Assembly (NCBI GenBank): GCA_041664245.1
Contig: JBAYLC010000004.1
Location: forward strand, 16,932 to 80,931
Length of the DNA: 64,000 nt
From: Minisyncoccota bacterium
GTDB lineage: Bacteria > Patescibacteriota > Minisyncoccia > UBA6257 > 2-01-FULL-56-20
Direction: 5' to 3'
Made by a program: the position numbers and the translations under genes. Below, in pieces: positions 3,105 through 56,835 of the stretch; position 1 is the first letter of the stretch; each line of letters begins with the position of its first letter. Below the pieces are notes generated by a model. It searched no databases. It saw nothing but the letters and a program-made list of their open reading frames with translations, and was not told the DNA's origin.

Positions 3105-3141
3105 TTTAAAATTACTTTCACCTTTAAAATAACATAACTCC

Positions 3142-3675: not shown

Positions 3676-3714
3676 TTTTTGCTTATTACAATGTACGTGC
3701 CCCGAGACGAGACA

Positions 3715-4743: not shown

Positions 4744-4748
4744 TTATA

Positions 4749-5426
4749 TTAAATTCCTAAAATTTTTATTGAACCGTTGGCATTTGAATAATCAATATTT
4801 GATGAGGTCGAAAAATTATTGGTGCTGGTCGCAACCAATAACTCGTTCGGCCCGCCCGACCAATCCGCTTGGTCAAAAATTTTACTCCGGAAACGAACTA
4901 AAAACGTCTGCAAACTGCTCGTTGTCGCCCCCGACCAGCCGTAAGTAACAGTCAAGCGTCGAATTGATGGATCAAACACCGTAAGGGCGGGGCAAGCGGA
5001 AACCGGATTAGGAGAAATAGTAGTCGTGGCAAAATTACCCAATGCGTTTCGGCAAACTGCCTCAATTTTAAAATATCGCGTGTAAGTTGTGGTGCCGTTT
5101 ATAATTGACTCCGGCCCCGACATCGCTTTAAAAGGAGAAGTACCGGTAGTCATCGTGGTTGCCATATAATAAAAATAATTAGTCGACGTTGCCATAATAT
5201 TATCAAGATTATGCCAGTCGCTTGCCGAAAAAACCTTTACCCTTTCAATCAAATCTAGTCCTAGTCCCACCGCAAACTTTGACTCATTAGCCGTTTTATT
5301 AGTTTTTAGAGTCGGAATAATAATCGCTGCCACCGCCCCGATTAGAAGAACCCCAACTGCTATTGCTATCAAAATCTCAATCAAAGATTGCCCCCGTCGA
5401 CCATAAATTTTAAACTTTTTTTTCAT
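4749..5426 (-). CDS. Minor pilin or pseudopilin
   Basis: Prepilin-type N-terminus KIYGRRGQSLIEILIAIAVGVLLIGAVAAII (Gly cleavage site, Glu5, hydrophobic helix). Confidence 0.55.
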   Translation of the reverse strand: MKKKFKIYGRRGQSLIEILIAIAVGVLLIGAVAAIIIPTLKTNKTANESKFAVGLGLDLIERVKVFSASDWHNLDNIMATSTNYFYYMATTMTTGTSPFKAMSGPESIINGTTTYTRYFKIEAVCRNALGNFATTTISPNPVSACPALTVFDPSIRRLTVTYGWSGATTSSLQTFLVRFRSKIFDQADWSGGPNELLVATSTNNFSTSSNIDYSNANGSIKILGI

Positions 5427-5463
5427 AATTACTGCATTAAAATATCACCTGACGAAACTCTAT

Positions 5464-6735: not shown

Positions 6736-6812
6736 ATTTATATGTTTAAATTTTTTATTTAAATTTCGTATTGGCATCATTTGATTATTAATAAAAAACT
6801 TTATCTATTTAT

Positions 6813-8024: not shown

Positions 8025-8140
8025 AATAAAAAATCACCAATTCAAACAATTAATTCGAACCAACTCTTCTTAATTATAAACTTTTCTATAAAACTAGTCA
8101 CTAAAACATCCCCAAAGGGTAAATAGTAAAATTCTCAAAG

Positions 8141-9856: not shown

Positions 9857-9871
9857 AAAATTATTTAAAAA

Positions 9872-10543
9872 TTACTTTCCCAAAAAAAGTCCGATAAAAT
9901 CTCCCAGAGATAATTGCCCCCAAACATATTCCAATCCAAAAATCGGAAGCAACCAAATCTTTACTATGATAGCAAAAATTGCTATCGGCAACCAAAAATA
10001 AAAAAGCGGCAGCCGTCCCTTGGAAAAAATCGTGTAGACCACGGAAAACAAAACTCCAAAAATCAGAATAGCCGCCCAAAAAAACAAAAATCCCGGATAC
10101 CCTGAGAGAAAAGTCCCGAGCGCGATAAGTTCAACTTCTTCGTTTTCAAAAAATCTATTACCAAATCTTTTATTCAAAAATTTCGCCAACCGGCTTACTA
10201 AAATAGAAGCCAGAAAAGCGACTATCCAAAAAATAAAAAAATGGACAAATACATATGACAAAAAATAAGAGATCGGGGCATAAGGCGGCAAAAGGCCTCT
10301 GCTAAGCGGATTACTCTCCCAAACTTGATACTGCTTGTAAGATATATAAACATTAACTGCTACCACAATCACAAACAAAATCAACCACAAAATCTTTAAA
10401 TACTTCTTTACCGTTTCTCGGGAAAATTTTCCTTCTCTTTTTGAGTCCAAAAATCGCCGGCCCCAAAAAATCTGTGCCGCAAAAAGCAAAATCAAAGCCA
10501 CTAAATTAAAATATTGAGCTACTGCAAACATTCTCAAAATCAA
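9872..10543 (-). CDS. pilD: Prepilin peptidase (A24 family)
   Basis: 223 aa polytopic membrane protein immediately downstream of pilA and adjacent to pilB. Size and position are typical of PilD; the assignment rests on context and topology. Confidence 0.65.
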   Translation of the reverse strand: MILRMFAVAQYFNLVALILLFAAQIFWGRRFLDSKREGKFSRETVKKYLKILWLILFVIVVAVNVYISYKQYQVWESNPLSRGLLPPYAPISYFLSYVFVHFFIFWIVAFLASILVSRLAKFLNKRFGNRFFENEEVELIALGTFLSGYPGFLFFWAAILIFGVLFSVVYTIFSKGRLPLFYFWLPIAIFAIIVKIWLLPIFGLEYVWGQLSLGDFIGLFLGK

Positions 10544-10556
10544 TTATAACACAAAA

Positions 10557-10576
10557 AGCGCCCTAAGGCGCTTTTT
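10557..10576 (-). terminator. Intrinsic terminator hairpin between pilA and pilD; probably a partial, attenuating terminator
   Basis: AGCGCC-CTAA-GGCGCT perfect hairpin flanked by an A-tract and a T-tract (aaaaAGCGCCctaaGGCGCTtttt). pilD starts right after it on the same strand. Confidence 0.55.
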
Positions 10577-10601
10577 GTTGAATAATAATTAATACTCTTT
10601 T

Positions 10602-11222
10602 CTAGAGAGCTAGACCAGGATTAGTCCCAACCTCATACAAAGTAACGCTGTTCCCCCCATCATTAACCGAACTACTCGAAAACTTCTGGCTTTCAATTCT
10701 AGTATTCACCTCATATGTGTTATTCGTTCCAGTCATATATGCGTAATAGAAATCATCACTCGTCGTAGTTACGGTAGGACCAAAAGTATTTGGCACAACA
10801 GGGTCAACTGGTAACTGCGGTAGCGGCGAACCAGTACTAATTTTAGTAAAATCAATCGGAATCCATCCGGTTCCATTAATCGCCCGAGAAGTAGTCGCTC
10901 CAACAGTTGCAGCCCCAGCCCCTAACGACGGGAAACGAAACCCGCACTGATTACCAGCAGTACCAAGCGTAGAAGAAGCGTCCAAAGAAGTGAAGCACCA
11001 TGTCGTACTTGTTCCAAGATACGCCGCCGGCACATCAGAGAGATAAAGCGCAATAGCGCTATTCAAAGTCGACAAATCCGAAAACCTGGTCGTATCCCGT
11101 GACTGCCTTAGCAACTCGGCCGGATTTAAAGTCAAAATAACGACCGTCGCGAGAATGGCAATAATACCAATAACAATCAGAAGTTCAATAAGAGTAAAAC
11201 CCTTAACTTGCTTATTTTGCAT
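10602..11222 (-). CDS. pilA: Major type IV pilin
   Basis: Canonical KGFTLIELLIVIGIIAILATVVILTL prepilin leader and alpha1 helix. Own promoter upstream and hairpin downstream. Confidence 0.8.
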   Translation of the reverse strand: MQNKQVKGFTLIELLIVIGIIAILATVVILTLNPAELLRQSRDTTRFSDLSTLNSAIALYLSDVPAAYLGTSTTWCFTSLDASSTLGTAGNQCGFRFPSLGAGAATVGATTSRAINGTGWIPIDFTKISTGSPLPQLPVDPVVPNTFGPTVTTTSDDFYYAYMTGTNNTYEVNTRIESQKFSSSSVNDGGNSVTLYEVGTNPGLAL

Positions 11223-12521: not shown

Positions 12522-13580
12522 ATGCTTATAAAAATGGACGAAAAAATTTATTACAATGCCATAAACATTGCCCTTGGCAGTGACTACCGAAAATTAGGAA
12601 AGTTGATAGAAAAGTCCGGCTGTTGGGAAATTGCTTGGGAAAATTTAGGTGTCGCCGAAAAAAATAAAATCAATCCGGAAAAACTTTGGGAGAAACTTCT
12701 AAGGTCAAAAATTGAGCTGACCTTAATAAACGAAAAAAAATACCCCTCCTTACTTCGCGAAATATCCTTTCCGCCTTTTGGAATTTATTCTATCGGCAAT
12801 TTTTCGGCTCTAAATCAAAAATATAAAATAAGCATCGTCGGTACCAGAAAGGCCACCGAGCAAGGCAAGGAAATCGCTCGAGAATTCGCCAGAAATCTCG
12901 GGCAAAACAATTTCGCCATAATAAGCGGTTTGGCTTTAGGAATTGACGCCGCTGCTCACTCCGGCGCCCTTGACGCTAACGCTCCCACCATCGCCGTCCT
13001 CGCCAACGGCCTTGATCATTTCTATCCCAGTTATAATTCTAAATTGGCTGAAAAAATAATCTCAAGCAATGGACTAATAGTTTCAGAATATCCAATAGGA
13101 AGCCCAACCCTCCCTTATCGATTTATAGAAAGAAATAGAATCATCAGCGGCCTTTCCGCCGGCACCCTTGTTATTGAAGCCCCCGAAGGGTCTGGCTCGC
13201 TCGCCACCACTAGATTTGCCCTTGATCAAAATCGGGAAATTTTTGTTACTCCCGGACCTCTAAAACATCCAAATTTCTCCGGCTCCCATAAATTAATCCG
13301 CCTTGGCGCCATCCTAGTTACCTCTCCTGAAGAAATTATTGAGTCTCTCGCCCCAGAAATTCTCGAGGGTAAAAACAGCCCACTAAACCAGCTAAATCTA
13401 TTAAATAGCCTAGAAGAAAAGAGAATATACGAAATTTTAAAAAACAGCGCTAAACCAATCACAGTTGACAAAATTATTGAACTATCTAATCTTAATGCCA
13501 AAATCATCAATCAAACTCTTACCTTCCTGACTATAAAGAATATAATCAGTGAAACTGAGGCTGGGTTTGTCGTTCTATGA
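12522..13580 (+). CDS. dprA: DNA processing protein A (Smf), competence-associated
   Basis: Rossmann-like DprA core (IVGTRKATEQG, ISGLALGIDAAAHSGAL, EAPEGSGSLATTRFALDQNREIF) plus a C-terminal winged-helix. The stop overlaps the topA start (ATGA). Confidence 0.85.
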   Translation: MLIKMDEKIYYNAINIALGSDYRKLGKLIEKSGCWEIAWENLGVAEKNKINPEKLWEKLLRSKIELTLINEKKYPSLLREISFPPFGIYSIGNFSALNQKYKISIVGTRKATEQGKEIAREFARNLGQNNFAIISGLALGIDAAAHSGALDANAPTIAVLANGLDHFYPSYNSKLAEKIISSNGLIVSEYPIGSPTLPYRFIERNRIISGLSAGTLVIEAPEGSGSLATTRFALDQNREIFVTPGPLKHPNFSGSHKLIRLGAILVTSPEEIIESLAPEILEGKNSPLNQLNLLNSLEEKRIYEILKNSAKPITVDKIIELSNLNAKIINQTLTFLTIKNIISETEAGFVVL

Positions 13581-23178: not shown

Positions 23179-25491
23179 CTATTTAACTAAATTCAATTCT
23201 CTCAAAATCGGATATATACTCTCGTACCCAATTACTTTTGTAATATCAACTTTCCTCATTACTTCGATAATCTGTTCCCTTGCTAGGTCATTCTGCTTAT
23301 CAAAAAAATAAGCGATTCCCAATTTTATCCCTACTTCCGGATTTCCTGGCTCCATTTCTAAAGATTTTTTGTATAGCTCTATGGCTTCTTTCAAGTGCCC
23401 AGAATCGGCAAAAAAATTCGCCACCACCAATGGTTCATGATAATTTTTCCACTTTCTCCCAAGCTCAATTGCCCTCTTTAATTCTTTATAACTCAACTCT
23501 TGATCTCCAATGACATGCGCAAATAAACCGTAATAAAAATGTCCGTCGGCAACATTTGGGTTTAAATCCAAAGCTTTCTTAATTAACTCAATGGCCCCCT
23601 TTGTGTCACCTCTTAAAGATTTCGTCTTGGCTAATGAAAACATAACTTGTTGGCGATTCGGACTCAATTCTAAGGCGATTTTTCCCTCTTTTTCAGCTTT
23701 ATCTAAAAATTCATTCTTATTAACCTCCGAAACCTCGTTATACATATCCAATAGCGCGTAATGATTATAGGCGTCCTTTGGATGCTCCGCTGTCGCTTCC
23801 TCCATCGCTACAATTGCCATTTTTACCTCGTCAGCTGAAATTGCCTCTGGTTTGTAAAAATAATTCTCCGCCACTGCCGCCGCGTAATCTCTCTGAACAT
23901 TCCACCGGTACGGACTCCAAATATCTATCGCTTTTTTAAAACTTTCCAAAGCGCCCCCAGGATTATTTTGAATGAAATCATTCATCCCTTGATACTGAAG
24001 TTTATTAGCGATTAGACTATTTACATTCAAAACATAAACCCAAACAACTCCCCCTAAAAGAACAATTCCAATCATCACATTCTTCGCAAATATATCTGGT
24101 TCGTCTCTGCCCTTTTTAAAATCAAAACCAGGCCTCTGTTCCTTTTTTTCTTCTACCTCCTTGCTCATTCGATAAAACCCGTCGATAAATCCAGTCGTAA
24201 CAAAAAACATAATTAACGGTCCAATCGTTTCAAATAAAAACAAATTTCTTATAAAATACCCAAAAACTAGAACTATAACTACTTGGCCAAGTAATTTATC
24301 TTTAATTTTTAAAGCGGAATAAATTAGAGCTCCTAAAACAAAAACATAAGAAAGCAATAAAAGCACCCCGCCAACAACCAGATATTCTAAAACAAGATTG
24401 TGAGGTTTATCAAAACGAGTTTCCTGGTAGTTGATCGACAATAAGCTTGGGTCGTAATATTTATTCGAAACAATATTGAAATTCTCAAAACCCCATCCCA
24501 ATATTGGCTTTTCTAAGAAACCTTTCCACGCCGACTCAATTGCCACTATTCTAGGCTTTAATCCTTGGTCAGAAAACGACAAATCCTTAAAACGATTCAA
24601 TCCCGGAATTGATTCCCATATACTATTCCCCTTAGTAAACCAAAACGCTCCTCCTAAAATAATAACCAATATGAAAACAGAGGCGTAAAACTTTCGGCTT
24701 CGAAAAACTCTAGTTTTAATCTCCGGTGGTCGAAAAGCGAAAAGCCCAAAAAGTGCAACTAGCGCTACTCCAAACCCAATTATATCTCCCCTAGTTTGAG
24801 TCTGAAAGAAAGACAAAACCGTAAGCAAAATCACTACTCCAAGAAAAATAACCTCCCCCCAATTTTTATTGTCGTTATTAAACCTCTCTTTTCCCGCCCA
24901 AAATTGTTTCAATAAAAAATACAAAGCGAAAAATATATTAAAAAGCAGATAACCAGCCAAGAAGCTCGGATTGCCAAAAGTGCTGCCTGGTCTTCCCGAT
25001 GCTAAATCTCCAGCAAGTAAAAAATTCGGATTACTCAATTGAATTAATCCAATAACACTCACGATCGAAGCGGAAATTAATGAAAAATAAGCAACTTTTT
25101 TAAAACTAATTTCCTTTCCTAGCGAACTAATTACCAATCCCAGCAAAATAAAATGTAGATACGTATAAACTCCCAAGGCCCTCTCTTGAGTTCCCCAAAA
25201 GCTACGAAGCGGGTCCTCGCCAAAAATCGAATTGATTATTAAGACCAACCCTAAAGTCAGAAAAGCCCAAAATATCGGCGTTAATTTCGGCCGGTATTTT
25301 TTGTCTATTATCACTAGGGAAATCCATAAAATTATTATCAACTCGCATAAAATCTGAAAAAACAAAGTTTTCGAAAAAGTATAGGGATAAACTGCCTGCT
25401 TGAGATAAAAAAGAGGCACTACTAGAACAATCGAGTAAATCAAATATCTTATAGCTTTCAGTAAATATTGCGAAATTTTTTTGTGTTCCAT
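23179..25491 (-). CDS. O-antigen ligase (Wzy_C)-like polytopic membrane protein with C-terminal TPR repeats
   Basis: About 12 TM helices N-terminally, then TPR-like repeats (AIELIKKALDLNPNVADGHFYYGL, AIELYKKSLEMEPGNPEVGIKLGIAYF). Start reassigned to the Met at 25491; the first 26 codons of the track ORF are encoded by the upstream terminator palindrome. Confidence 0.6.
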   Translation of the reverse strand: MEHKKISQYLLKAIRYLIYSIVLVVPLFYLKQAVYPYTFSKTLFFQILCELIIILWISLVIIDKKYRPKLTPIFWAFLTLGLVLIINSIFGEDPLRSFWGTQERALGVYTYLHFILLGLVISSLGKEISFKKVAYFSLISASIVSVIGLIQLSNPNFLLAGDLASGRPGSTFGNPSFLAGYLLFNIFFALYFLLKQFWAGKERFNNDNKNWGEVIFLGVVILLTVLSFFQTQTRGDIIGFGVALVALFGLFAFRPPEIKTRVFRSRKFYASVFILVIILGGAFWFTKGNSIWESIPGLNRFKDLSFSDQGLKPRIVAIESAWKGFLEKPILGWGFENFNIVSNKYYDPSLLSINYQETRFDKPHNLVLEYLVVGGVLLLLSYVFVLGALIYSALKIKDKLLGQVVIVLVFGYFIRNLFLFETIGPLIMFFVTTGFIDGFYRMSKEVEEKKEQRPGFDFKKGRDEPDIFAKNVMIGIVLLGGVVWVYVLNVNSLIANKLQYQGMNDFIQNNPGGALESFKKAIDIWSPYRWNVQRDYAAAVAENYFYKPEAISADEVKMAIVAMEEATAEHPKDAYNHYALLDMYNEVSEVNKNEFLDKAEKEGKIALELSPNRQQVMFSLAKTKSLRGDTKGAIELIKKALDLNPNVADGHFYYGLFAHVIGDQELSYKELKRAIELGRKWKNYHEPLVVANFFADSGHLKEAIELYKKSLEMEPGNPEVGIKLGIAYFFDKQNDLAREQIIEVMRKVDITKVIGYESIYPILRELNLVK

Positions 25492-25525
25492 AACCCTAAG
25501 TATAAATAAAAATAACCTAACTAAA

Positions 25526-25554
25526 AAGCACGTCCGCCTAAGGCGGACGTGCTT
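25526..25554 (-). terminator. Intrinsic terminator of the surface-protein gene (13-14 bp perfect stem)
   Basis: aAGCACGTCCGCC-taa-GGCGGACGTGCTt followed on the minus strand by TTTTTAGTT. Lies 35 nt after the stop of the 25589..28942 gene. Confidence 0.7.
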
Positions 25555-25588
25555 TCGAATTGCAATCAATACAGAATTTCTATCGAAA

Positions 25589-28500
25589 CTAAGAACCAGC
25601 TGCGTAAGAACCAGAGAACAACTGAATCGGAATACCCACGCCAGCGATTCTTACATTAACCGTACCGCCAGATTCCGCCGTAGTGTAAGTAGCATCAGTC
25701 ACCGCATTAAGGATTGCTGAAAGTCCTTGAGCCACACCGCTTACAGCAACGGCTGTATTGCTCAAAGTATTAGCCCTAAGCGTAAATGTCTTTGTAGTAC
25801 CAGCGCTGACAATATAGTTATTGAAGTCAAACGAAACTGAAGTTGTGGTAGTTGCAGACTGAGTCACATTAGTGCCGGCAGTCGGATTAAACAACGTAAA
25901 TGTGGCAGGTAACGAAAGGCTATTAGCCGAACCGCCAATAGTAACCACAAATGACTGAAGTTTAACCGATCCAAGTGGGTCCGCCGTGAAGCTAATAGTG
26001 GCCAACTCATCAGTTGTAGCCTTAGCTCTACCAGACGTAACTCCAATCGGAGTCGCCGATACTGTAAGTTTACCTCTCACAATCGTCTGAGCATTACCAG
26101 TCGCAGCAGTGAGAGTAACCGTCGAACTGTTATTCGAGGTACTACCACGAGCCACCACTACTTCTGCCGCTGTATCAAGAAGCGGGTCAGTAGAAGTTGA
26201 CGCAGCAAGCTTAAACACATGAGTAGTGTTGTCAGACGCACCGCTCGAGCTATAGTCAGACACATCGCCCTTCAGAACCAAGGTAATTGATCCAGATTTC
26301 GGAACTACGATCGGATTCTGGAAACTAAACAGGCGGTAATAACCCACACCAGCCACATCTGAGCCCTCGGTATTGTTGCTTGTTGTCGGTTCGCCACCCG
26401 TAGCCAACAATGTATTCAAATCCCTTGAATCGTACAACTTCAAACTAGCAAAGGAAGCCTTAACCGAAGGAGAAGCAACCGTCTGGAAAAGATAAAGTTG
26501 AGAAACCTTTATATCTTCAATATTGGTTGTTTCGGAGAAACGGTAAGCGGCCAAGGTATTTCCAGTTGAACCCATCACAATCTGGTTAGCTGACGGAGCA
26601 GTGGAGTCCAATGTAACAGTCAATGTTGACTGTCCAGCCACAACCACACTTTGTCCGGTTCTTGCTGTGCAAGAAACCGCAGCATAGGTCGTCGCGCCAG
26701 ATCCCGTGCAACTCGCAAGTGTTGTAGCCGCCGTATGTGTACCAGCCACCGCAGATGAAAGTATATCAACATAAACATCCACTATCTTTGTTTGTCCAGC
26801 TGGAATATTTAGTTGACCGGTAAAATTATAGGTAGCAGCCGATAAAGTCGGTTGAACTGTCCCAAATTGAGTATTACCAACCATCAGCTTAAGGTTTTGG
26901 CTGCTAGTCGTAAGGCCACCCAATGTAACCCCAATACTCATGAGGTTCACCCCTTCCGCCGTTGAAGCCGCTATTGAGTAAGAACCAATTTTAGCGTTAG
27001 TTGTGCCAGCTGAATACGTTTGAGTTCCTACTGCGCTATTTCTAGCTGTAGTAGCTGAGCTAGTAACTCTAGTTAACACGCTGCCAGTTGCCGCGCCGCT
27101 TGATGCCGTCGCGCTTGATGTCTGGCCACGCAAGTTGCTTGACCCAGTCAACACCTTTGCCACAATCGTCGTGAAATCAGCTGTGGTTTGGATATCTCCT
27201 CGTAAGGTAAGCACCCGAGTTGTATTCGCCGGAACAATGTAGCTAATCGGAGAAGAACTCTTACCAAAACAATTTGTAGCCGTTGAAGATGCATAAGTTG
27301 CAGCACTATCAGTACAATCCACTGCTAACACTGTCGCCAAATTGGAAATTGTGCTCCCAACTTGAAAACCAGCATCATCAACTAAACTAACGTTCTTGAT
27401 TTGGCTATTTACTCCGAGAGTCGCTCCCGTGAAAGTCAAAGAAAATCCGAGCCACTGAACCTTAACTGGTTCGCCAGCCGCATAAATCTTGTATTTCAAG
27501 AGAGGTGTTGCCGATCCGCCGGCAACAATATTCCCAGTCGGTGTATCAGAAGCCAAAGTGGTTGTAAGTTGTCCAGGTTGAATAGTCACCTGCATTGAAC
27601 TTGCCGAACCGCCGTTGATAGTCACCGAAACCGGTACTCCATACTGGCTATCAACTCCCCAAACATCATACGAGTTCAAGAGGTTGAAAGTGAAATTGTA
27701 GTTTGGACTACCCGCAATGTCGGCGTAGACTTGCAAATTGCTGTTTCCGGTAGAAATAACCGCCGGAGCAGAACTGAAATCAAAAAACGCCACTCCATCA
27801 GCCGGAACCATCGCTAAGGTTTGGCCAACTTGAGTACCGTTCACAAAAAGCTTCACATTCTTAATGTCGCTCTTTGTCGCCGAACCAGTCACTTTAAAAG
27901 TAATTCCTTTAAGGTTAACTGGACTGTTCGTAGCTGTAATCGTCCACTGCGAAATCATTTGATTCTGATCGCCAGCATAAACTGATGTCTGCGGTGTACC
28001 CGAAGACACAGTTAAACTCGCAATTGACGGATTTGAGACCGTAGTCGCTGTGAAAACATTTCCACTCAAGGGAAAAGCCCCCACTGGAGTAACAGCCACG
28101 TTATTGCTGTCAACTGCCGTTATATCGGTAACCGCCATCAAACCAAAAGAGATAGTGTTTCCATCCGTAACTGTTCCTGGGTCAATAGCTAATTCAACAT
28201 TCCTGGTCTGACCGGCATTAATGCCTAATCCCAAACCATTGAATGTAATCACGCCACCAGAAAGCGAACTATACTGGGCGATTACCTTACCGTTTTCGAT
28301 TAGGTATGCCGCAGAAATACCACTATCCGAAACTATACCCAACTTCTTGAATTTCAAGTCGTTGACTGTAATTCCGCCAGCATTGCCAGCTGTAAGAGCA
28401 ACTCCTAAAACAGGCAATCGCGCCGAGGAAGCAATGAAAGAACTAACTGCAGGATTCTTCGAAGAGAGTCCTACTGAAAGACCAGAAACCGGAACCGGAT

Positions 28501-28942
28501 TTGGATTCGGGTTAGGATTTGGATTCGGATTTACTCCCATCGCGTTAACAAAAGCGCGAGTCTTTGGACCAAAATAACCAGCCGCCGGAGCGATTCCGTT
28601 GGCTGCTTGGAATTTACCCAAAGCCGCTTTTGTCATTGAACCGAAATAAGCAGTCGGAGCAGTAATATTCAAATACCCTCCTGTGATTAAGAACTGCTGA
28701 AGTGAAGTTACGTCGGCACCTCTGCTTCCAAGGGTGAGGTCCTTAGTGAAGCTGTAGGAACCAGTAACTGGAGTGCCTCCTTGAGCAGTCGCCAACTGAG
28801 CATTAAGCGCTTGAATTTGCGCCATAAGCGAATTAATCATCGCTTGAAGCTCAGCTGTTGTCTGTCCATGAGCCACTGGTGTGACGCCTGCGATAACCAT
28901 CGCAAAAAGCGCCAATGAAACTAATTTTTTTCCTATATTCAT
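25589..28942 (-). CDS. Large secreted cell-surface protein: signal peptide, peptidoglycan-binding domain, (PN)n linker, long beta-rich Ig-like repeat region
   Basis: Signal peptide MNIGKKLVSLALFAMVIAGVTPVAHG. PG_binding_1-like segment (GSRGADVTSLQQFLITGGYL...GSMTKAALGKFQAANGIAPAAGYFGPKTRAFV). NPNPNPNPNPNPVPVSG linker. Roughly 900 aa that is S/T/A/G/V-rich with no Cys. Confidence 0.6.
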   Translation of the reverse strand: MNIGKKLVSLALFAMVIAGVTPVAHGQTTAELQAMINSLMAQIQALNAQLATAQGGTPVTGSYSFTKDLTLGSRGADVTSLQQFLITGGYLNITAPTAYFGSMTKAALGKFQAANGIAPAAGYFGPKTRAFVNAMGVNPNPNPNPNPNPVPVSGLSVGLSSKNPAVSSFIASSARLPVLGVALTAGNAGGITVNDLKFKKLGIVSDSGISAAYLIENGKVIAQYSSLSGGVITFNGLGLGINAGQTRNVELAIDPGTVTDGNTISFGLMAVTDITAVDSNNVAVTPVGAFPLSGNVFTATTVSNPSIASLTVSSGTPQTSVYAGDQNQMISQWTITATNSPVNLKGITFKVTGSATKSDIKNVKLFVNGTQVGQTLAMVPADGVAFFDFSSAPAVISTGNSNLQVYADIAGSPNYNFTFNLLNSYDVWGVDSQYGVPVSVTINGGSASSMQVTIQPGQLTTTLASDTPTGNIVAGGSATPLLKYKIYAAGEPVKVQWLGFSLTFTGATLGVNSQIKNVSLVDDAGFQVGSTISNLATVLAVDCTDSAATYASSTATNCFGKSSSPISYIVPANTTRVLTLRGDIQTTADFTTIVAKVLTGSSNLRGQTSSATASSGAATGSVLTRVTSSATTARNSAVGTQTYSAGTTNAKIGSYSIAASTAEGVNLMSIGVTLGGLTTSSQNLKLMVGNTQFGTVQPTLSAATYNFTGQLNIPAGQTKIVDVYVDILSSAVAGTHTAATTLASCTGSGATTYAAVSCTARTGQSVVVAGQSTLTVTLDSTAPSANQIVMGSTGNTLAAYRFSETTNIEDIKVSQLYLFQTVASPSVKASFASLKLYDSRDLNTLLATGGEPTTSNNTEGSDVAGVGYYRLFSFQNPIVVPKSGSITLVLKGDVSDYSSSGASDNTTHVFKLAASTSTDPLLDTAAEVVVARGSTSNNSSTVTLTAATGNAQTIVRGKLTVSATPIGVTSGRAKATTDELATISFTADPLGSVKLQSFVVTIGGSANSLSLPATFTLFNPTAGTNVTQSATTTTSVSFDFNNYIVSAGTTKTFTLRANTLSNTAVAVSGVAQGLSAILNAVTDATYTTAESGGTVNVRIAGVGIPIQLFSGSYAAGS

Positions 28943-34376: not shown

Positions 34377-35663
34377 CTATTCCGGTCTCTTGCCAAGAGT
34401 AACGCTAAGTGTTATTTCTTTCCCTCCCCGGTTTATTTTTAAAGTAACTCGGTCGCCAACATTGAACTCCGAAATTAAATCACTAAAAACATGGTCTTTA
34501 TCTATCTTTTTTCCGTTCGCCTCCAAAATAATATCTTCCGCCTGAATTCCCGCCTTAGCTCCCGGTGAGTTTAGCTCCACCGCTGGTCCGTCTTCGTTGC
34601 CTCTAACCAACGCTCCGTAATCAACCGGCAATTTATTTTTAGTCGCTAAATCTGTTGTTACTGTCATATATCTCACTCCCACATACGGCGCTTGAATCGT
34701 CCCGCCTGATTTTACCGATTGAATGTCTCTCTTGGCTCTATTAATAGGAATCGCAAAGCCGATGTTTTGGGCGTCTGAAGCAATCGCCGTATTTATTCCA
34801 ACTACCTCACCTCGCAAATTCAAGAGCGGTCCGCCGGAATTTCCCGGATTGATTGCCGCATCGGTTTGAATCACTCCGGAAATTGTCTCTGTCGTTCCCC
34901 CCCCCGAAGCCGTCACCGTTCGTGCTAAACCGGAAATTACCCCAGAAGAAACCGTATTTCTAAATTCGCCAAGCGCGTTTCCAATTGCAATCGCCGTCTG
35001 GCCAAGCTGCAAACTATCCGAATCACCGATAGTCACAGTTGGCAGTCCGCTCGCGTTAATCTTTACCACCGCCAAATCTTGCGCCGGATCTCGAGCTAAC
35101 ACCGTCGCGTCATATTTTTTCCCGTCATTGGTAAAAACTGTGTATGAAGCCTTTGTGTCTGCCACTACATGCTTATTGGTTAAAATCAAGCCGTTTGAAG
35201 AAATAATAAACCCGCTCCCACCTCCTACCTCCTGAAATTTGGTTCCTTTCTGGCAGGGCTGGGAAAATTGCGGAAAATCATTGCCAAAAAACTGCTGGAA
35301 CTCCGGTGGCAATCCTCCAAACGGATCCACCGGACAATTTTCAATAATCGGCACATTTTTCGAAACCGTAATCGCCACGACCGCCGGTGACGTCTTTTTA
35401 ACCGCTGCCACCACCGCTTGTTCATAATCAAGCGCCGGTTTATAAAGCGGAACCTGCACCCCCGAATTAGATGAATTATCGCCATTAGTAGTCTGTTCTG
35501 TCTGATTGCCTCCAGAAAAAGGTTTTGTCACGCTATTCCATAAATTCGAAAAGAAGTCGGCTCGCGCCATCGGCGCCCCGACGGTTGAGCCAATTAAATA
35601 ACTAATCAAAAGGAGCGCCACCACCACTCCTAACGCTTTTAAATTTGGTGAAATTTTATTCAT
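34377..35663 (-). CDS. htrA: HtrA/DegP-family serine protease with PDZ domain
   Basis: Signal/anchor, catalytic triad context (TNKHVV...; DLAVVKI; GNSGGPLLN) and a C-terminal PDZ domain. Confidence 0.85.
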   Translation of the reverse strand: MNKISPNLKALGVVVALLLISYLIGSTVGAPMARADFFSNLWNSVTKPFSGGNQTEQTTNGDNSSNSGVQVPLYKPALDYEQAVVAAVKKTSPAVVAITVSKNVPIIENCPVDPFGGLPPEFQQFFGNDFPQFSQPCQKGTKFQEVGGGSGFIISSNGLILTNKHVVADTKASYTVFTNDGKKYDATVLARDPAQDLAVVKINASGLPTVTIGDSDSLQLGQTAIAIGNALGEFRNTVSSGVISGLARTVTASGGGTTETISGVIQTDAAINPGNSGGPLLNLRGEVVGINTAIASDAQNIGFAIPINRAKRDIQSVKSGGTIQAPYVGVRYMTVTTDLATKNKLPVDYGALVRGNEDGPAVELNSPGAKAGIQAEDIILEANGKKIDKDHVFSDLISEFNVGDRVTLKINRGGKEITLSVTLGKRPE

Positions 35664-35713: not shown

Positions 35714-37039
35714 TTATTTTTTCAGCCGACTAATTAAATTTTTAAAAATCTTTATGGTTGTGTCAATCTCTTTTTTTGTGGTTGGCCACCCCAGGCTAAA
35801 TCTTATGCTCCTTCGCGCCCTCTCCTCACTATAACCCAACGCTGTAATCACATGAGAAACTTTTGCCGCCCTACTAGAACATGCCGAACCCGAAGAAACC
35901 GCCACTCCCGCCAAATCAAATCCAATCATTACCTCTTCCGCCTTATAATCCGGAAAATAAACATTCAATATATTCGGCAACTGACCGAAATTTTTTATCT
36001 TCGTGTCATTCGCGTTTTTTCGTGTCATTCGTGTCGGAACACCATTAATTTCCGCCTTCGAATAGATCTTCTTAATCCCACTCCATAAACGTTTTTTCAA
36101 TTCTAAAATCCGCCTCACTTCTTTCTCTCTATTTTTTTCCACCAACTCTACCACCTTTCCAAAACCAACAATATTCGGCACATTCTCCGTCCCCGATCTA
36201 AGTCCGAATTCCTGCCCTCCCCCGCTTACAATCGCCGAAATGAAAGGGTTCCCTAAATTATTATTTTTTATATAGAGCGCTCCGACTCCCTTCGGCCCAT
36301 AGATCTTATGCGCCGAGATAGTCATCAGATCCACTCCTAAATTATTTACGTTACAGTCTAAAAATTGTAACGCTTGAACGGCATCGGTATGAAAAAACGG
36401 GAATAATGAATTATGAATCTGGAATTTAGAATTTCCCACTGATTCTTTATTCCTAATTCCCAATTCTTCGCGGAAATCTCCGATGATTCTTGATATTTCC
36501 ACAATCGGCTGAATCGTCCCAATCTCGTTATTCGCATACATTATAGAAACAAAAACCGTTCGCTCATTTAGAATCTCTTTCAACTTCTTTAAATCCACAA
36601 TTCCGTTTTTATTAACTGGAATAATAATCACTTCTACCCCTTTTTTTTCGAGCGCTCGCACCGTCTCTAGAACTGATTCATGCTCAACCGCCGAGATTAT
36701 CAATCGCGGCTTCCAATCACCTGACACATGATACTTGATACCTGATACTAAACCTCGCAACACAAGATTGTTCGCCTCCGTCGCCGATCCCGTAAAAACA
36801 ACCTCCCGGAACTCGGCGCCAATCGCCTTGGCGATTATCTCTCGGCTCAAATCAACCGCCCCAATCGCTTCTTGTCCGAAACTATGAAGCGAACCCGGAT
36901 TCCCAAACTTCGCGCCAAAATACGGCCTCATTGCTTGAAACACTTTTTCGTCCACCGGCGTCGTCGCCGCATAATCTAGAAAAATCCTTCTTACGTTAGA
37001 ACCAATCTCCTTCATAAAAGCGGTGTTATATAGAGACAC
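35714..37039 (-). CDS. Cysteine desulfurase (class V aminotransferase, IscS/NifS-like)
   Basis: PLP-Lys motif ISAHKIYGPKGVGALY and catalytic Cys loop SSGSACSS. Contains a short low-complexity insertion encoded by a 19-nt-spaced direct repeat at 36001..36031. Confidence 0.85.
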   Translation of the reverse strand: MSLYNTAFMKEIGSNVRRIFLDYAATTPVDEKVFQAMRPYFGAKFGNPGSLHSFGQEAIGAVDLSREIIAKAIGAEFREVVFTGSATEANNLVLRGLVSGIKYHVSGDWKPRLIISAVEHESVLETVRALEKKGVEVIIIPVNKNGIVDLKKLKEILNERTVFVSIMYANNEIGTIQPIVEISRIIGDFREELGIRNKESVGNSKFQIHNSLFPFFHTDAVQALQFLDCNVNNLGVDLMTISAHKIYGPKGVGALYIKNNNLGNPFISAIVSGGGQEFGLRSGTENVPNIVGFGKVVELVEKNREKEVRRILELKKRLWSGIKKIYSKAEINGVPTRMTRKNANDTKIKNFGQLPNILNVYFPDYKAEEVMIGFDLAGVAVSSGSACSSRAAKVSHVITALGYSEERARRSIRFSLGWPTTKKEIDTTIKIFKNLISRLKK

Positions 37040-38063
37040 AATAGTGCTTCAAGTTATCAGAACAATCAAGCCCCATAAAATCTGGTTTATTTATACTGCT
37101 CTCCCTTTGGAAATTTAAAGTAGCCCTTAAAACGTAATGTTTACCATCTTCACCCAGAACATAATCAAAATTACGCTCCGGAAAATAAGCTATGCCAATA
37201 TCGCTGCCCTTTAAAATTATCCCCAATTCACTCGCATTAATTGATTGGCCATCAAAACCCAAGCACGTTCCCGTTGTTTCTTTAAAACCGGGATAGTACT
37301 CACATTTTGAAAAATAAAGTTCCAAGCCGTTTTGAATTTGTCTTAAATCAGAAACCGCTCGGGCGTCCTGACGCTTAAGTGGTTCGTCCTTATTTTGCTT
37401 AGCTAAAAAAGTTGCAAAAATAAAAAGAATGACAACAGCGCCGATAAAACAAAATATCTTAAACAATTTTCTATATCTATGCCCACCTATCCCCCCTATA
37501 TTGTCGTTTTCTTTTTTTGTTTTGAGAAAATCCAACAAACCTCGGTCGATAAAATAATAAATTACCAAAAATGCCAATATAATACTTGGAAAAATAAAAA
37601 AATCCGAAAACGCGAAAACAATCAAAAAAACGTAGGAAAGAATATTTATTTTCAAATCTATTCTTAATATCTCCGATATTTCTTTCTCTTTGTAAAAAAA
37701 CCATAAAATAACTCCTTCAATCAATACAGTCATTAGAAAAAGAATAAAAATTCCCTCGCTTTTCAAAAACCAAAGATTGGTGGAATAAATAATTATAGAC
37801 AACACCCCGATTAAACTCGACACAAAATTAATTAAAAAGGCAATCAGAAAACCCCGTCGATGATTTTCCTCAAATGACTTATTAATCAAGATTGCTTCAA
37901 TAATCCAAACTCCTAAAAATGCCAAAATTCCAAAAAATATTGGCAACCCCCAAAAAAATCCGACCATCATATCGGCTCTTGCAACAGACGGGAAAATCAA
38001 CCCAACAAAAATAACCGACACGATTCCAAGAAATCCAAAGTTTCTTTTGCTCATATTATCCAT
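37026..38063 (-). CDS. Polytopic membrane protein ending in a type IV pilin-like globular domain (no prepilin leader)
   Basis: About 6 TM helices, then a final hydrophobic helix running into DARAVSDLRQIQNGLELYFSKCEYYPG (pilin alpha1-C-like) and a C-terminal domain with two Cys pairs. Confidence 0.4.
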   Translation of the reverse strand: MDNMSKRNFGFLGIVSVIFVGLIFPSVARADMMVGFFWGLPIFFGILAFLGVWIIEAILINKSFEENHRRGFLIAFLINFVSSLIGVLSIIIYSTNLWFLKSEGIFILFLMTVLIEGVILWFFYKEKEISEILRIDLKINILSYVFLIVFAFSDFFIFPSIILAFLVIYYFIDRGLLDFLKTKKENDNIGGIGGHRYRKLFKIFCFIGAVVILFIFATFLAKQNKDEPLKRQDARAVSDLRQIQNGLELYFSKCEYYPGFKETTGTCLGFDGQSINASELGIILKGSDIGIAYFPERNFDYVLGEDGKHYVLRATLNFQRESSINKPDFMGLDCSDNLKHYCVSI

Positions 38064-39850: not shown

Positions 39851-42052
39851 CTAAAGTCCAGTATACAAATAATCCCCGTAAATTTTTTTAGTCTTATCAT
39901 AAATAGCTTTCCTAAAATCAGCCGGGATTTTTTGGTCGTATGAAGTTGTTATCTCTCCGGAGTAGTGAACCAGAATATCCATGTATCGCAAGCACTTTTC
40001 TCTATTGTCGCCGTTGCTATAGCCCCTAAGCTTAGCATCAGTACCGGATTTTCTAATTTGAACAAACATGTTTTCAAAAGCCAAATATGTAGCATCTCCG
40101 GTAAAACGAACATCTTCTAGGCTAGAAAAATCAAGCTCTGGCATGGCTTCTCTGAAAATTTCCTTCGCGTCACCAACGGCTATGAGTCCTTCTTTAAGGG
40201 CTAAAACAACACCAAGATAATAAAGATCTATTTTATCCCGCTTAACTTCACCCTGCGCTTTTTCAGCAAGAAGTTTTACTGGATCTGGTTCGCTCTCGTT
40301 ATAGTAAGTTATATCCACCCGTTCGTAATAACGATAAACAATTCTGCATTCTTTAAATATTTCTTCTAAATAATCGGCCATTGTCTGTTTTTTTAAAAAG
40401 AGATGCGCCGCCAAAGCCGATGCAATAATTGAAGCCTCACCGGCACTTTTTTCTCTCATCACAATCGCCTTCCTTCCGCCGCGACTCTGAACTATATTTT
40501 CCGGACCGATAATCATACCTCCGCTTTCCTCGCCCGTAAAAATAATCCTAGGATCCACTCCTAAGTTTATTCCTTTTGTCCAAATATCATTTACAATCAC
40601 TTCCTTGTCCGGCTCTGAAAATAGCTTTTTCTCCGCCTTCTTTATTATTGTCGCAATCTCCTTAAACCCTACCGGCGTTGTCAAAATTTTAACTCCCTGC
40701 GCCCTTCCCCACTCATTCCAAGCCCGTGAGCATGGCGTCGTCACAATCATAAACCTCGGATGATCACTCCATCTTCCTGAGTTTTTAAGCTGCTTGGCAT
40801 AAAAATCCATCACCATTAAAAAAGAAAATGTGGGATGATAAAACGAAGCTATCCTTTTTTCATCGATCGGAATGCAGTAAACACCTAAACTTCTTAAATT
40901 TTCCGCATTTGAAGCCTCCTCAATCTGTCCCATTGTTAGCCGATCGCCATCAGGATCGGTAATAAGAAAAACATATCCAATCGGCTTTTCTTTTAAAAAA
41001 TAATCATAAGACATCGTCTCTTGTACTTCCGGCAAAGATGCATCACAAGAAAGATCAAAAAATTCCTCTTTCCCGGTTTTGGGATTAGCTTTCTTAGTTT
41101 TACCTACTCCGTGAAAAAATGGATCTTCTAATTGGTTGTTCCACTCAAACGCTTCAAAAATTCCAAAATATTTTAAAAGTGGCACCATTGTCCTATACAT
41201 ACAACCACCCACTGTTTCGAACATGAGCCTCATACCATTACTTGTCGCATTTTTTATAAGACTCAAATTCTCCTCAGATGCAATTCCTTGTCTTAGATAA
41301 TTAGCATATGCCTCTATACCATCAACGTCCTGAACTACAAATGAATTTGTTTTTGGTGAAAGAGTGATAATGTAACCTTCCGGTGATTCTTTCGCTACTT
41401 TAATAATTCCCTCAATCTTGTCTATAAAAGCCATCGACATCTCCGGCAGAAACTGACTCCCTTGATTATCAAGATCCTTTGTAGCCGTCTTGCCACTTAT
41501 GGCGTGGCTTGAAGTCACGAACTCCCCGCCGTCATAATCCATCATGAAAATTAAAAACGAGGTGAGCCAAATTGCCACAACTTGATTATCAGAAGTCTGA
41601 TGAGTGTAGATACCTTGCGCCGAGTGAATCCTCGAAATTAACTCTATGTACTGTTTGGTATTATATCTTACCTCCCCAGCCACCAATTTATTAATTTCCC
41701 GATCTTTAATTCTGTCTTTTAAAACTAGGCTCTTCCCTAGGGTCGCTAAAACTACGCCTATTTGATTCAACGGAAACCTTGAGTCCCACGGATATAAAAC
41801 ATTTTGAGGACCCCTAATACCGCCAGTTGAATGCATTGCTTCTTTTTTGTAATTCTCCAACCATCCTTCAAGATTATATTTCTCCACAAATTCTCTATTT
41901 ATAATCAGCTTAATTTCTCCCTCATCCCTAAGATTGAATATCGGATTTTTCTTAATCCACTCCGGCGTAGCTCCCTCCACTCTTTCGTAATATTCTTCTT
42001 TTAAAGCTTGTAGAAACCCCTCCCGATCTTCTTTACTCTTAAAAATTTTCAT
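39851..42052 (-). CDS. Alpha-D-phosphohexomutase superfamily protein (phosphoglucomutase/phosphomannomutase-like, unusually long at 733 aa)
   Basis: Phosphoserine loop FVTSSHAISGK, metal loop ITDPDGDRLTMG, sugar-binding loop FTGEESGGMIIG. Confidence 0.7.
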   Translation of the reverse strand: MKIFKSKEDREGFLQALKEEYYERVEGATPEWIKKNPIFNLRDEGEIKLIINREFVEKYNLEGWLENYKKEAMHSTGGIRGPQNVLYPWDSRFPLNQIGVVLATLGKSLVLKDRIKDREINKLVAGEVRYNTKQYIELISRIHSAQGIYTHQTSDNQVVAIWLTSFLIFMMDYDGGEFVTSSHAISGKTATKDLDNQGSQFLPEMSMAFIDKIEGIIKVAKESPEGYIITLSPKTNSFVVQDVDGIEAYANYLRQGIASEENLSLIKNATSNGMRLMFETVGGCMYRTMVPLLKYFGIFEAFEWNNQLEDPFFHGVGKTKKANPKTGKEEFFDLSCDASLPEVQETMSYDYFLKEKPIGYVFLITDPDGDRLTMGQIEEASNAENLRSLGVYCIPIDEKRIASFYHPTFSFLMVMDFYAKQLKNSGRWSDHPRFMIVTTPCSRAWNEWGRAQGVKILTTPVGFKEIATIIKKAEKKLFSEPDKEVIVNDIWTKGINLGVDPRIIFTGEESGGMIIGPENIVQSRGGRKAIVMREKSAGEASIIASALAAHLFLKKQTMADYLEEIFKECRIVYRYYERVDITYYNESEPDPVKLLAEKAQGEVKRDKIDLYYLGVVLALKEGLIAVGDAKEIFREAMPELDFSSLEDVRFTGDATYLAFENMFVQIRKSGTDAKLRGYSNGDNREKCLRYMDILVHYSGEITTSYDQKIPADFRKAIYDKTKKIYGDYLYTGL

Positions 42053-55400: not shown

Positions 55401-55841
55401 TTAACCGTTTATGTCTCCCAGCACATTATAATCACCATATGGAGTTCCTCCACCCCCGGGCGTCCCGCCAGAATCACCCGAAAGAAAATTCTCAACCAAT
55501 GCTGGCAATCCCCAGGCCATTAGTCCAATCGCCATTGCCACCACCGCATAAAGTAATTGCGTCTTCGCTTTTTTTACCCGTTCTGGATCAGCCGAAGAAC
55601 CGAGATAAAGAAACCCGGCGTAAAAGACTGCCATTATCGCCGCAATCCAGAATATCCTTGCCATCCAAGTGAGAATCGTTCCAGCTAAATTAACGATTCC
55701 GGAAACGCTGGTAATCGGCGCCGTAGGCGGCGGATCAAGCGCCAGCACTCCTGTAGGAAAAATAACCCACCCAGCAAGAAGCAGTAATACTAAAACCAAT
55801 CCGTATTTTTTGAAAAACTTTGCCAATTTATTTTTCATCAT
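55401..55841 (-). CDS. VirB2/TrbC-like secretion-pilin-type small membrane protein, paralog 3
   Basis: Signal peptide (MMKNKLAKFFKKYGLVLVLLLLAGWVIFPTGVLA), then helix-loop-helix: ILTWMARIFWIAAIMAVFYAGFLYLGSSADPERVKKAKTQLLYAVVAMAIGLMAWGL. Gly-rich tail. Start taken at the Met at 55841; the track's 55994 would read through the intergenic palindrome. Confidence 0.45.
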   Translation of the reverse strand: MMKNKLAKFFKKYGLVLVLLLLAGWVIFPTGVLALDPPPTAPITSVSGIVNLAGTILTWMARIFWIAAIMAVFYAGFLYLGSSADPERVKKAKTQLLYAVVAMAIGLMAWGLPALVENFLSGDSGGTPGGGGTPYGDYNVLGDING

Positions 55842-55885
55842 AAAAAAATCAATTCCCTTCAACCCGACTTCTAATTTTTCTTTAT

Positions 55886-55910
55886 CTTGGGCGGCTATAG
55901 CCGCCCAAGA
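55886..55910 (-). promoter_or_regulatory. Perfect 11-bp inverted repeat (stem-loop) between pilin-like paralogs 2 and 3
   Basis: TCTTGGGCGGC-tata-GCCGCCCAAGA, 14 nt after the stop of 55924..56328 and 45 nt before the start at 55841. No strong U-tract, so it looks like an mRNA processing or stability element or a partial terminator. Confidence 0.5.
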
Positions 55911-55923
55911 TAAATACTTATCA

Positions 55924-56328
55924 CTATTGTCCGCTAAGACCAGTGCCAACAAGCTTCGGAATACCATAAGCCATAAGTCCAATAACAATCGCAATTACGG
56001 CGTACAAAAGAGTGTGGCTCGCTTTCTTCACTTTTTCCGGATCGCCAGCCGCCGTAAGATAAAGAAACGCTGCCCAAAAGATAAACAAAATTGCCGCTAT
56101 CCAGAATATTCTTGCCACCCAAGTAAGAATGGTTCCAAACCAATCGATTGCTCCTCCAACGCTGCTCGGTCCGGGCGTCGTGCCAATGGGCGGATTAACT
56201 TGGGTTATATCCTGAGCCATCACTGCCACCGGTCCGGCAAAAATAACCATCAAAAAGATTATCGCGCCTACCTTTAATAAATTTTTCTGCATTATTCCTA
56301 TTTTTTCTTTCTTAATATACTTCCACAA
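55924..56328 (-). CDS. VirB2/TrbC-like secretion-pilin-type small membrane protein, paralog 2
   Basis: Signal peptide (MQKNLLKVGAIIFLMVIFAGPVAVMA), then ILTWVARIFWIAAILFIFWAAFLYLTAAGDPEKVKKASHTLLYAVIAIVIGLMAYGI. Confidence 0.45.
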   Translation of the reverse strand: MWKYIKKEKIGIMQKNLLKVGAIIFLMVIFAGPVAVMAQDITQVNPPIGTTPGPSSVGGAIDWFGTILTWVARIFWIAAILFIFWAAFLYLTAAGDPEKVKKASHTLLYAVIAIVIGLMAYGIPKLVGTGLSGQ

Positions 56329-56394: not shown

Positions 56395-56835
56395 TCAACC
56401 CGTGCATTGCAGATTAAAAATACTGCAAACAATTGGCACCACCCCGCCGGCAATAAGTACTACCGCGAATCCAATCACCGCGTAAAGCAGGGTTTTTTTG
56501 CCACTTTTGAACTTCTCTGGGTTCCCAGCAGCTGTAAGTATTTGAAAAGCACCTATTATCACCATTATTCCCGTGAGTGGCACCGCGATCCAGAAAAGCG
56601 TGTTCATAATATTTTTAAACACGCAAGAAAAATTTGTGCAACCAATTGGGGTCGTTAGATTTATTGTAACGCTCCCCCCGGGCCCAGTATTACTATTCCC
56701 GGGGCCACCAGTATTACTGTTTCCTTGCGCCCAAACAGTCGTATAAAAACTCAAAACCACTACCACGCTTAGCACCAAACAAATACTTAATAAAACTTTT
56801 TTCATATTTCTAAAAATTATTTTCAACTTTACCAA
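56395..56835 (-). CDS. VirB2/TrbC-like secretion-pilin-type small membrane protein, paralog 1 (more divergent)
   Basis: Signal peptide (MKKVLLSICLVLSVVVVLSFYTTVWA), Cys pair (CTNFSC), then LFWIAVPLTGIMVIIGAFQILTAAGNPEKFKSGKKTLLYAVIGFAVVLIAGGV. Start possibly at the Met at 56805. Confidence 0.45.
   Translation of the reverse strand: MVKLKIIFRNMKKVLLSICLVLSVVVVLSFYTTVWAQGNSNTGGPGNSNTGPGGSVTINLTTPIGCTNFSCVFKNIMNTLFWIAVPLTGIMVIIGAFQILTAAGNPEKFKSGKKTLLYAVIGFAVVLIAGGVVPIVCSIFNLQCTG

Follow-up and report, generated by a model that had tools for sequence, protein, structure and literature searches.

The 64,000-nucleotide stretch of DNA analyzed here (the window) belongs to the genome of a Minisyncoccota bacterium of the candidate phyla radiation (CPR; GenBank assembly GCA_041664245.1, contig JBAYLC010000004.1, forward-strand positions 16,932 to 80,931). 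On its minus strand, at 37026..38063, the open reading frame (ORF) list gives a gene with an ATG start and 345 codons, followed by a stop at 37026–37028, whose 345-aa product combines a polytopic membrane domain resembling FraC with a type IV pilin module that appears uncleavable. Judged from its sequence, the gene is an ancient in-frame fusion of a FraC-like membrane domain and a complete type IV pilin. Scans against Pfam and NCBIfam returned nothing usable for the 345-aa protein, and NCBI and IMG label it only as “hypothetical protein.” An identical protein was found in IMG, ENA, and Logan, and a 342-aa variant, likewise annotated as a hypothetical protein, is present in NCBI in a metagenome-assembled genome (MAG) of Candidatus Paceibacterota, to which GyrA and PilB of the window also map.

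The junction between the two parts resembles a former prepilin leader, which could point to an artefact in which adjacent membrane-protein and prepilin genes were joined by a sequencing or assembly error, or else to a decaying pseudogene. We consider this extremely improbable, and it is effectively refuted by the conservation of the gene. The frame is likewise uninterrupted in the NCBI MAG and in an orthologue that is 91% identical over its full length, lies in an identical gene order (locus L001), and comes from an independent sequencing run and sample; the architecture is also kept in dozens of relatives that are only 25–35% identical and 316–365 aa long (from JGI, ENA, NCBI, and Logan). Between the window protein and the 91% orthologue, the ratio of nonsynonymous to synonymous substitution rates (dN/dS) is 0.12 in the membrane domain, 0.13 in the pilin part, and 0.15 overall. 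With values of ~0.12 and 0.13, both halves of the protein are under purifying selection.

Hydropathy and an AlphaFold2 model, built from an alignment of 28 family members (mean pLDDT, the per-residue confidence score, 79; 85–95 in the membrane part), give seven hydrophobic helices, at residues 9–27, ~35–60, 71–94, 103–124, 138–153, 156–174, and 200–222. The last of these is followed by a long amphipathic helix (227–254) and then by a small alpha/beta domain containing Cys 254, 267, 334, and 342. An earlier note on this DNA had described a six-helix membrane domain ahead of the pilin-like part, which is right if the first, signal-peptide-like segment is counted. That N-terminal segment (residues 1–30; 37974..38063, minus strand), delimited by hydropathy and family conservation, has a basic start (K6, R7), a hydrophobic core at 9–27, and a P-x-x-[C/A]-x-A|D motif that ends as VARA|D, with P25 and A30 at least 90% conserved in the family. 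Because the pattern is of the AxA type, the segment probably acts as a Sec signal peptide that signal peptidase I removes; a gene for this enzyme is found in the window at 418–1029. Otherwise the segment would be an uncleaved first transmembrane (TM) helix.

The distribution of positive charge gives a consistent orientation. Averaged over the 28 family members, the loops assigned to the inside carry 3.7, 2.8, and 4.3 Lys plus Arg residues, vs. 0.5, 0.8, and 0.0 for those assigned to the outside. Helix 200–222 is predicted on this basis to run from inside to outside, as in a normal pilin, whether or not the first segment is cleaved, and the pilin head (residues 223–345) is predicted to be extracytoplasmic, as had been anticipated; its four conserved Cys fit such a location. 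The linker between the two domains (residues 175–199; 37467..37541, minus strand; DRGLLDFLKTKKENDNIGGIGGHRYRK) is K/R-rich and, from the charge counts, cytoplasmic, with six such residues in the window protein and 4.3 on average in the family. Aligned to prepilin leaders, its end resembles one, yet the next residue is Leu and not Gly.

The C-terminal part is homologous to type IV pilins. A word-indexed single-protein search recovered only the 91% orthologue, and two profile searches, each scoring 8000 candidates, recovered few members; it was an exhaustive phmmer search over 1.84 billion protein representatives that exposed the family, yielding 167 proteins that pass E ≤ 1e-3. Of the 150 best matches, about 80 are proteins of 150–180 aa that carry GFTLIE near the N-terminus and match the query over residues ~198–344; E-values to these GFTLIE-bearing proteins range from 1e-12 to 1e-6, with identities of up to 43% over the matched stretches. 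We aligned the window protein, from residue 196 to its C-terminus, with 61 free GFTLIE-bearing CPR prepilins, to which it is 26–38% identical over the whole 150-aa module. Residues F201–D233 align without gaps, in the register of F1–D33 of the free pilins, placing F201 at F1, L200 at the Gly(−1) position, and C205 at that of Glu5. D233, P258, C334, and C342 are invariant columns, and the terminal “YCVSI” of the window protein corresponds to the “YCV..” ending of the family, which is the abundant CPR “RDARR-SDLRQIQ-LELY...YCV” class of pilins. Searched against the PDB, the free-pilin profile matches geopilins (1.8e-18), PulG (8e-12), and N-terminally truncated GspG heads (2e-3 to 7e-3), and the window module aligns end to end with it; a broader family profile independently matches Thermus PilA4 (E = 4e-5). 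The module likewise has the pilin fold, with a long N-terminal helix packed on an antiparallel beta-sheet and a disulfide-bonded C-terminal region. Residues ~200–345 are thus a whole type IV pilin or pseudopilin module, for which both homology and fold are established.

These results bear out the pilin-like C-terminus and the two Cys pairs of the earlier note (C254/C267 and C334/C342), and they extend it in one respect. The note had recognized only a pilin head with its alpha1C helix; both are genuine (DARAVSDLRQIQNGLELYF and the alpha/beta head, residues 223–345, with Cys254/Cys267 and Cys334/Cys342; 37029..37397, minus strand), but residues 200–222 (37398..37466, minus strand), in gap-free register with the free pilins, are the counterpart of alpha1N, so that the whole pilin is present and not the head only. 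Alpha1N would now serve as a generic TM anchor. The note was correct in finding no cleavage motif: L200 stands in place of Gly(−1), and no G/A-[FMILVYW]-[TS]-x-x-E sequence occurs anywhere in the protein. With C205 at position 5, it has no match to the Pfam N_methyl family (PF07963), which does match the three genuine prepilins of the same window. Neither L200 nor C205 is conserved at its position across the fused family, in which a hydrophobic helix of the correct alpha1N length is present with an unconstrained sequence. Leader and prepilin cleavage site of the fused pilin have degenerated, and “membrane-tethered pseudopilin” was a fair description of a protein with no cleavage motif and a polytopic domain ahead of the pilin.

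In free CPR pilins of this class alpha1N is the best-conserved segment, with a mean pairwise identity of 0.66, compared to 0.56 for alpha1C and 0.30 for the rest of the head. In the FraC-like fusions, alpha1N falls to 0.20 while alpha1C remains at 0.38 (values for the rest of the head are unreliable here, as there are few pairs), and in 11 other polytopic fusions the corresponding means are 0.17, 0.48, and, for the rest of the head, 0.30. Conservation of alpha1N is therefore lost in tethered pilins while that of alpha1C is maintained. Alpha1N of a free pilin must be recognized by the peptidase, be extracted by the platform, and pack within the core of the fibre. Because alpha1N identity collapses while alpha1C is kept, these constraints have evidently been lifted in the tethered pilins, in which the helix would now be merely an anchor; the decay argues against incorporation into a fibre.

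The membrane domain proper (residues 31–182; 37518..37973, minus strand) has five helices and, in family alignments, invariant E56, N79, G86, E116, and N140. What the earlier note had missed is that it consists of an internally duplicated FraC-like module. Hairpin repeat 1 (residues 35–95; 37779..37961, minus strand) comprises TM2 with E56, a basic cytoplasmic loop, and TM3 with N79, and hairpin repeat 2 (residues 103–153; 37605..37757, minus strand) comprises TM4 with E116, a basic cytoplasmic loop, and TM5 with N140. Comparison of residues 33–97 with 98–156 by hhalign gave a probability of 88.9% (P = 2.4e-6, score 30.7) and paired E56 with E116 and N79 with N140, whereas the scores of controls were 7.9 for a reversed repeat, 9–10 for other TM segments, and at most 14.3 for 30 column shuffles. 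As the score lies far above these controls, the domain reads as a hairpin present twice, each copy made of a Glu-bearing helix, a basic cytoplasmic loop, and an Asn-bearing helix. Judging by how far E56, N79, E116, and N140 are from the basic loops, all four would lie in the cytoplasmic half of the membrane. The resemblance of “GVWIIEA” in TM2 to the pilin “GFTLIE” was considered as a possible relic and rejected: TM2 crosses the membrane in the opposite direction, with Glu56 near its C-terminal, cytoplasmic end, and hhalign pairs it with TM4 of the same domain and not with alpha1N.

Sequence and fold searches of the PDB with the membrane domain gave no match. The Pfam FraC model (PF24301) matched 9 of 28 family members below threshold (best 25.9 bits vs. 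a cut-off of 27), covering only the first hairpin (profile positions 9–83 of 171), and the NCBIfam FraC model (NF045624) matched 12 of 22 members (best E = 3.9e-7). The window protein itself matched neither model at E ≤ 1 in Pfam or NCBIfam. This suggests a membrane domain remotely homologous to FraC that is not a member of the FraC family. Two stand-alone 198-aa versions of the domain (P0156, P0157) that keep the E..N..E..N pattern were found by profile search, one of them, with a weak FraC match, in a MAG of the filamentous cyanobacterium Planktothrix. The E..N..E..N domain is wider than CPR and may define a FraC-related superfamily.

The FraC-like fusion family includes at least 40 further clusters at 50% identity from CPR metagenomes; ~40 of the phmmer matches and 17 genome or metagenome loci share residues 1–182 and a total length of 316–365 aa. 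At least 11 other polytopic N-terminal domains carry the same pilin head, and N-terminal tethering of pilin heads seems, from this distribution, to have arisen repeatedly in CPR. In these proteins (P0125, P0130, P0063, P0112, P0061, P0088, P0091, P0097, P0107, P0114, P0079, and P0152, the last with a precomputed PF18920 domain), the head, recognizable as DARR.SDLRQIQ..LELY...YC[VI], stands behind unrelated membrane domains of two to five helices that lack the E/N hairpin motif. A further group (P0026, P0074, P0094, P0142, and P0146; 567–855 aa) has a conserved N-terminal cytoplasmic domain (“...L..YI...L..G.....I...L...GW...”), one TM helix, a long linker, and then one to three C-terminal CPR pilin heads (three in tandem in P0026). 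Single-pass proteins with large cytoplasmic domains are thus a second undescribed way to tether a pilin head. Taken together, these architectures portray the pilin head in CPR as an extracytoplasmic module that can be moved between anchors.

A type IV pilus cluster occupies 1587–11222 on the minus strand, ~26 kb from the fusion gene (the earlier note gave ~25 kb). Its genes, all on that strand, encode a 541-aa protein with a weak profile match to PilN (1587–3212), a prepilin with the N_methyl motif (4749–5426), a 438-aa prepilin with the same motif and fibronectin type III domains (5464–6780), PilC/T2SSF (6813–8024), PilB/T2SSE (8141–9856), and a prepilin with GFTLIE that is the candidate major pilin (10602–11222). 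No prepilin peptidase (PilD) gene was seen within the window, although it may lie outside, and tblastn found no second copy of the membrane domain or of the pilin module in the window. A dprA gene (12522–13580) adjoins the pilus cluster, which suggests a link to competence.

Immediately around the fusion gene, two genes of the RNase H-like superfamily lie upstream, in agreement with the nuclease-type neighbours noticed earlier, and a class V (cysteine desulfurase-type) aminotransferase gene lies downstream. The upstream RNase H-like gene stops 6 nt before the fusion gene starts, and the aminotransferase ORF (GTG start at 37039) overlaps the 3′ end of the fusion gene by 14 nt; these tightly packed same-strand genes are probably co-transcribed. 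The arrangement is conserved only at the locus of the 91% orthologue, and the nuclease-type neighbours thus carry no functional information. Across 17 loci the family has no conserved neighbourhood and no linkage to type IV pilus genes. The other loci have unrelated neighbours of housekeeping type, such as genes for a tRNA synthetase, an acylphosphatase, a metallo-beta-lactamase-fold protein, a recombinase, and a PEP-utilising enzyme, and a PilN-like gene occurs within 6 kb at only one of ~15 loci (L009, 5 kb upstream). Gene context therefore gives no functional link between the fusion family and pili.

The reading we favour, at somewhat better than even confidence, is that of an uncleaved, membrane-retained pilin head displayed at the surface on a FraC-like anchor. 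Sec/YidC would insert the protein co-translationally, and signal peptidase I would probably remove its first segment; the basic loops would stay cytoplasmic, the former alpha1N helix would cross the membrane from inside to outside, and alpha1C and the disulfide-bonded head would fold at the cell surface. With Gly(−1) missing, prepilin peptidase should be unable to cut, and the protein would not be a PilD substrate. Because there is no cleavage, no free N-terminal Phe, and no Glu5, and a polytopic domain is attached, it should not be polymerisable; instead of being extracted and assembled as a fibre subunit, it would remain in the membrane as a tethered pilin head. The head might then give a FraC-like envelope protein a binding module exposed at the surface, which could touch the cell's own pili, the wall, or a host cell, while the E/N cluster would serve the membrane domain's own function.

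Several observations weigh against this reading. The genome has a full type IV pilus machine, 26 kb away in the window, and retention of F201 and of the exact alpha1 spacing leaves room for interaction with it. Overall, sequences of the fused set differ more among themselves than do those of the free-pilin set, which could explain part of the alpha1N decay, although the ratio of alpha1N to alpha1C identity flips from 1.2 in free pilins to 0.35–0.5 in tethered ones despite this difference. A Foldseek search of the PDB placed pilins at the top of its list, though short of significance (E ≥ 0.14), and the link to FraC is below threshold in the family and absent for the window protein itself. In addition, the inner-leaflet position of the E/N cluster and the signal-peptide cleavage are deduced from sequence only.

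The same features can be turned toward a role at the base of the pilus, which the earlier note had proposed in the form of an anchor or nucleation protein: the tethered pilin would dock with its alpha1 and head as the last or first pilus subunit and, being unable to leave the membrane, would anchor or cap (terminate or nucleate) the fibre. A complete pilin module with the correct alpha1 length and register, F201 kept, and a type IV pilus machine with three prepilins in the same genome are all consistent with such docking, as is the single PilN-like gene near L009. The invariant Glu56 and Glu116, which would lie in the cytoplasmic half of the membrane domain about as deep as Glu5 does in a pilin, could even replace Glu5 in trans by pairing with the N-terminal amine of a neighbouring pilin. 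However, a subunit docking at the fibre base requires Glu5, which is absent, and the helix that would enter the fibre core is not conserved (0.20 vs. 0.66 in free pilins, or 17–20% over both sets of polytopic fusions). Nor is there conserved synteny with type IV pilus genes, or a paralogue with this head type within the window, and an identical type of head is fused to many unrelated anchors. We therefore consider a pilus-base role unlikely, and gene context lends it no support. A more elaborate proposal, which we regard as speculative and quite improbable, joins the two domains into a membrane socket for type IV pili or for a cell–cell junction in episymbiotic CPR. Here Glu56/Glu116, with Asn79/Asn140, would bind the N-methylated terminus of a free pilin, supplying Glu5 in trans, and the fused head and alpha1C would pair with the last fibre subunit. 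If true, this would lock a force-bearing pilus, or a FraC/FraD-like junction, to the cell membrane, and the fusion would represent a kind of pilus-anchoring or junction protein not known before, offering a first mechanistic hint at how FraC works.

A different use of the membrane domain would be as part of a cell–cell or envelope junction like that of FraC and FraD, in which a membrane complex would form around it and the head would reach across to the wall or to the host of the episymbiont. FraC-model matches recur among the relatives, a stand-alone homologue comes from the MAG of a filamentous cyanobacterium, and CPR bacteria are described as living attached to host cells. In Anabaena, the integral membrane proteins FraC and FraD reside at the septa and are required for filament integrity, nanopores, and septal junctions; FraD has a similar layout, with five TM helices and an external C-terminal domain (PMC6463045, PMC4488944). 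Their molecular activity, and with it FraC's own biochemical role, is not established, however, and all FraC matches fall below curated cut-offs and cover the first hairpin only, with none for the window protein. As no fraD- or fraE-like neighbours occur at the family loci and the analogy to FraD is one of layout only, a junction of this kind seems quite improbable. It is very unlikely, finally, that the membrane domain acts as a new kind of intramembrane peptidase (glutamyl-type) or chaperone, severing the linker to set free, for assembly, a pilin whose N-terminus is non-canonical. The invariant intramembrane Glu/Asn pairs, the leader-like basic stretch directly before F201, and the lack of a PilD gene within the window would fit such an alternative maturation, but PilD may simply lie outside the 64 kb, a released product would still be without Glu5, and the family has no conserved residue or motif at the putative cut site. 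Among the invariant polar residues of the membrane domain there is no Asp dyad, His, or Ser, all of them being Glu or Asn, and neither the window protein nor its 28 relatives matched any peptidase family (Peptidase A24, CPBP, rhomboid, and S2P included) in Pfam or NCBIfam; PDB similarity to peptidases was likewise lacking.

Compared with known systems, the tethered pilin head shares with type IV pilins and GspG (Thermus PilA4, 6xxd; PulG, 5wda; EpsG, 4lw9), and with CPR prepilins, a full alpha1 (TM alpha1N plus amphipathic alpha1C), an alpha/beta head, and a C-terminal Cys pair. It differs in having no class III signal peptide, Leu for Gly(−1), Cys for Glu5, no free N-terminal Phe, no N_methyl match, an N-terminus continuous with a polytopic domain, and an unconserved alpha1N. 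A precedent for an anchored, unpolymerised subunit fold is provided by archaeal ArlF/ArlG (FlaF/FlaG), which are archaellin-like, membrane-retained parts of the archaellum stator; they differ in their single N-terminal helix, beta-sandwich archaellin domain, and location in the archaellum operon. Similarity to FraC (PF24301, NF045624), the filament-integrity protein of heterocyst-forming cyanobacteria, lies in the first E-loop-N hairpin, which matches the N-terminal half of both FraC models, and in the fact that both are small polytopic inner-membrane domains. However, FraC is ~180 aa long with three predicted TM helices and no ectodomain (PMC4488944) and is encoded in a fraC-fraD-fraE operon (PMC6463045), whereas the fusion has a five-helix domain joined to a pilin, occurs in a different phylum, and has no such operon. 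FraD of Anabaena, at 343 aa with five TM helices and a periplasmic C-terminal domain, is like the fusion in overall layout and size (PMC6463045), but its external part is described as a coiled coil and not a pilin; this likeness does not go beyond layout. In Caulobacter, the minor pilin CpaL with its vWA domain likewise combines a pilin module and an extra domain in one polypeptide, but modular pilins of the CpaL type have the extra domain as their C-terminal part, retain the prepilin cleavage site, and are proposed to lie at the pilus tip (bioRxiv 10.1101/2025.02.12.637803), while in the fusion a polytopic extra domain stands at the N-terminus and destroys the site of cleavage. The “Pam pilus” of a 2026 CPR preprint was also considered and is unrelated, as it concerns Ig-like donor-strand pili.

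On these comparisons the fusion protein falls outside both the prepilin class and the FraC family by their defining features, while its sequence marks it as homologous to prepilins and probably to FraC. Our literature search returned no account of a pilin that follows a polytopic or FraC-like domain in one polypeptide, and the polytopic-anchor plus pilin architecture appears to be undescribed. Type IV pili belong to the small set of surface machines that CPR/Patescibacteria have conserved, and host attachment, twitching, and DNA uptake depend on them. The pilin fold in these organisms would not be solely a fibre subunit, its head and alpha1 having repeatedly been welded to polytopic anchors. 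All family examples seen carry a “hypothetical” annotation, and numbers of “pilins” derived from CPR genomes would have to be corrected. The family is a candidate for a surface-display or anchoring protein in host contact and an unexpected evolutionary link for the FraC domain, although the organisms are mostly uncultured and the immediate impact is moderate.

Other features of the window include a gene for an HtrA-like serine protease (34377–35663, minus strand) located between the aminotransferase and ClpB genes, which is absent from that position in L001, and a phosphoglucomutase-like gene (39851–42052) whose product is 733 aa long, vs. 446 aa in L001. Two very large ORFs of 796 and 1117 aa lie at 23179–28942 (minus strand); the latter is conserved in L001, where it is without a precomputed Pfam match. 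Two small membrane proteins (55401–55994 and 56395–56835, minus strand) match the Pfam family T4SS_pilin (PF18895), which we take to be the VirB2-like pilin typical of CPR conjugation-type type IV secretion systems.

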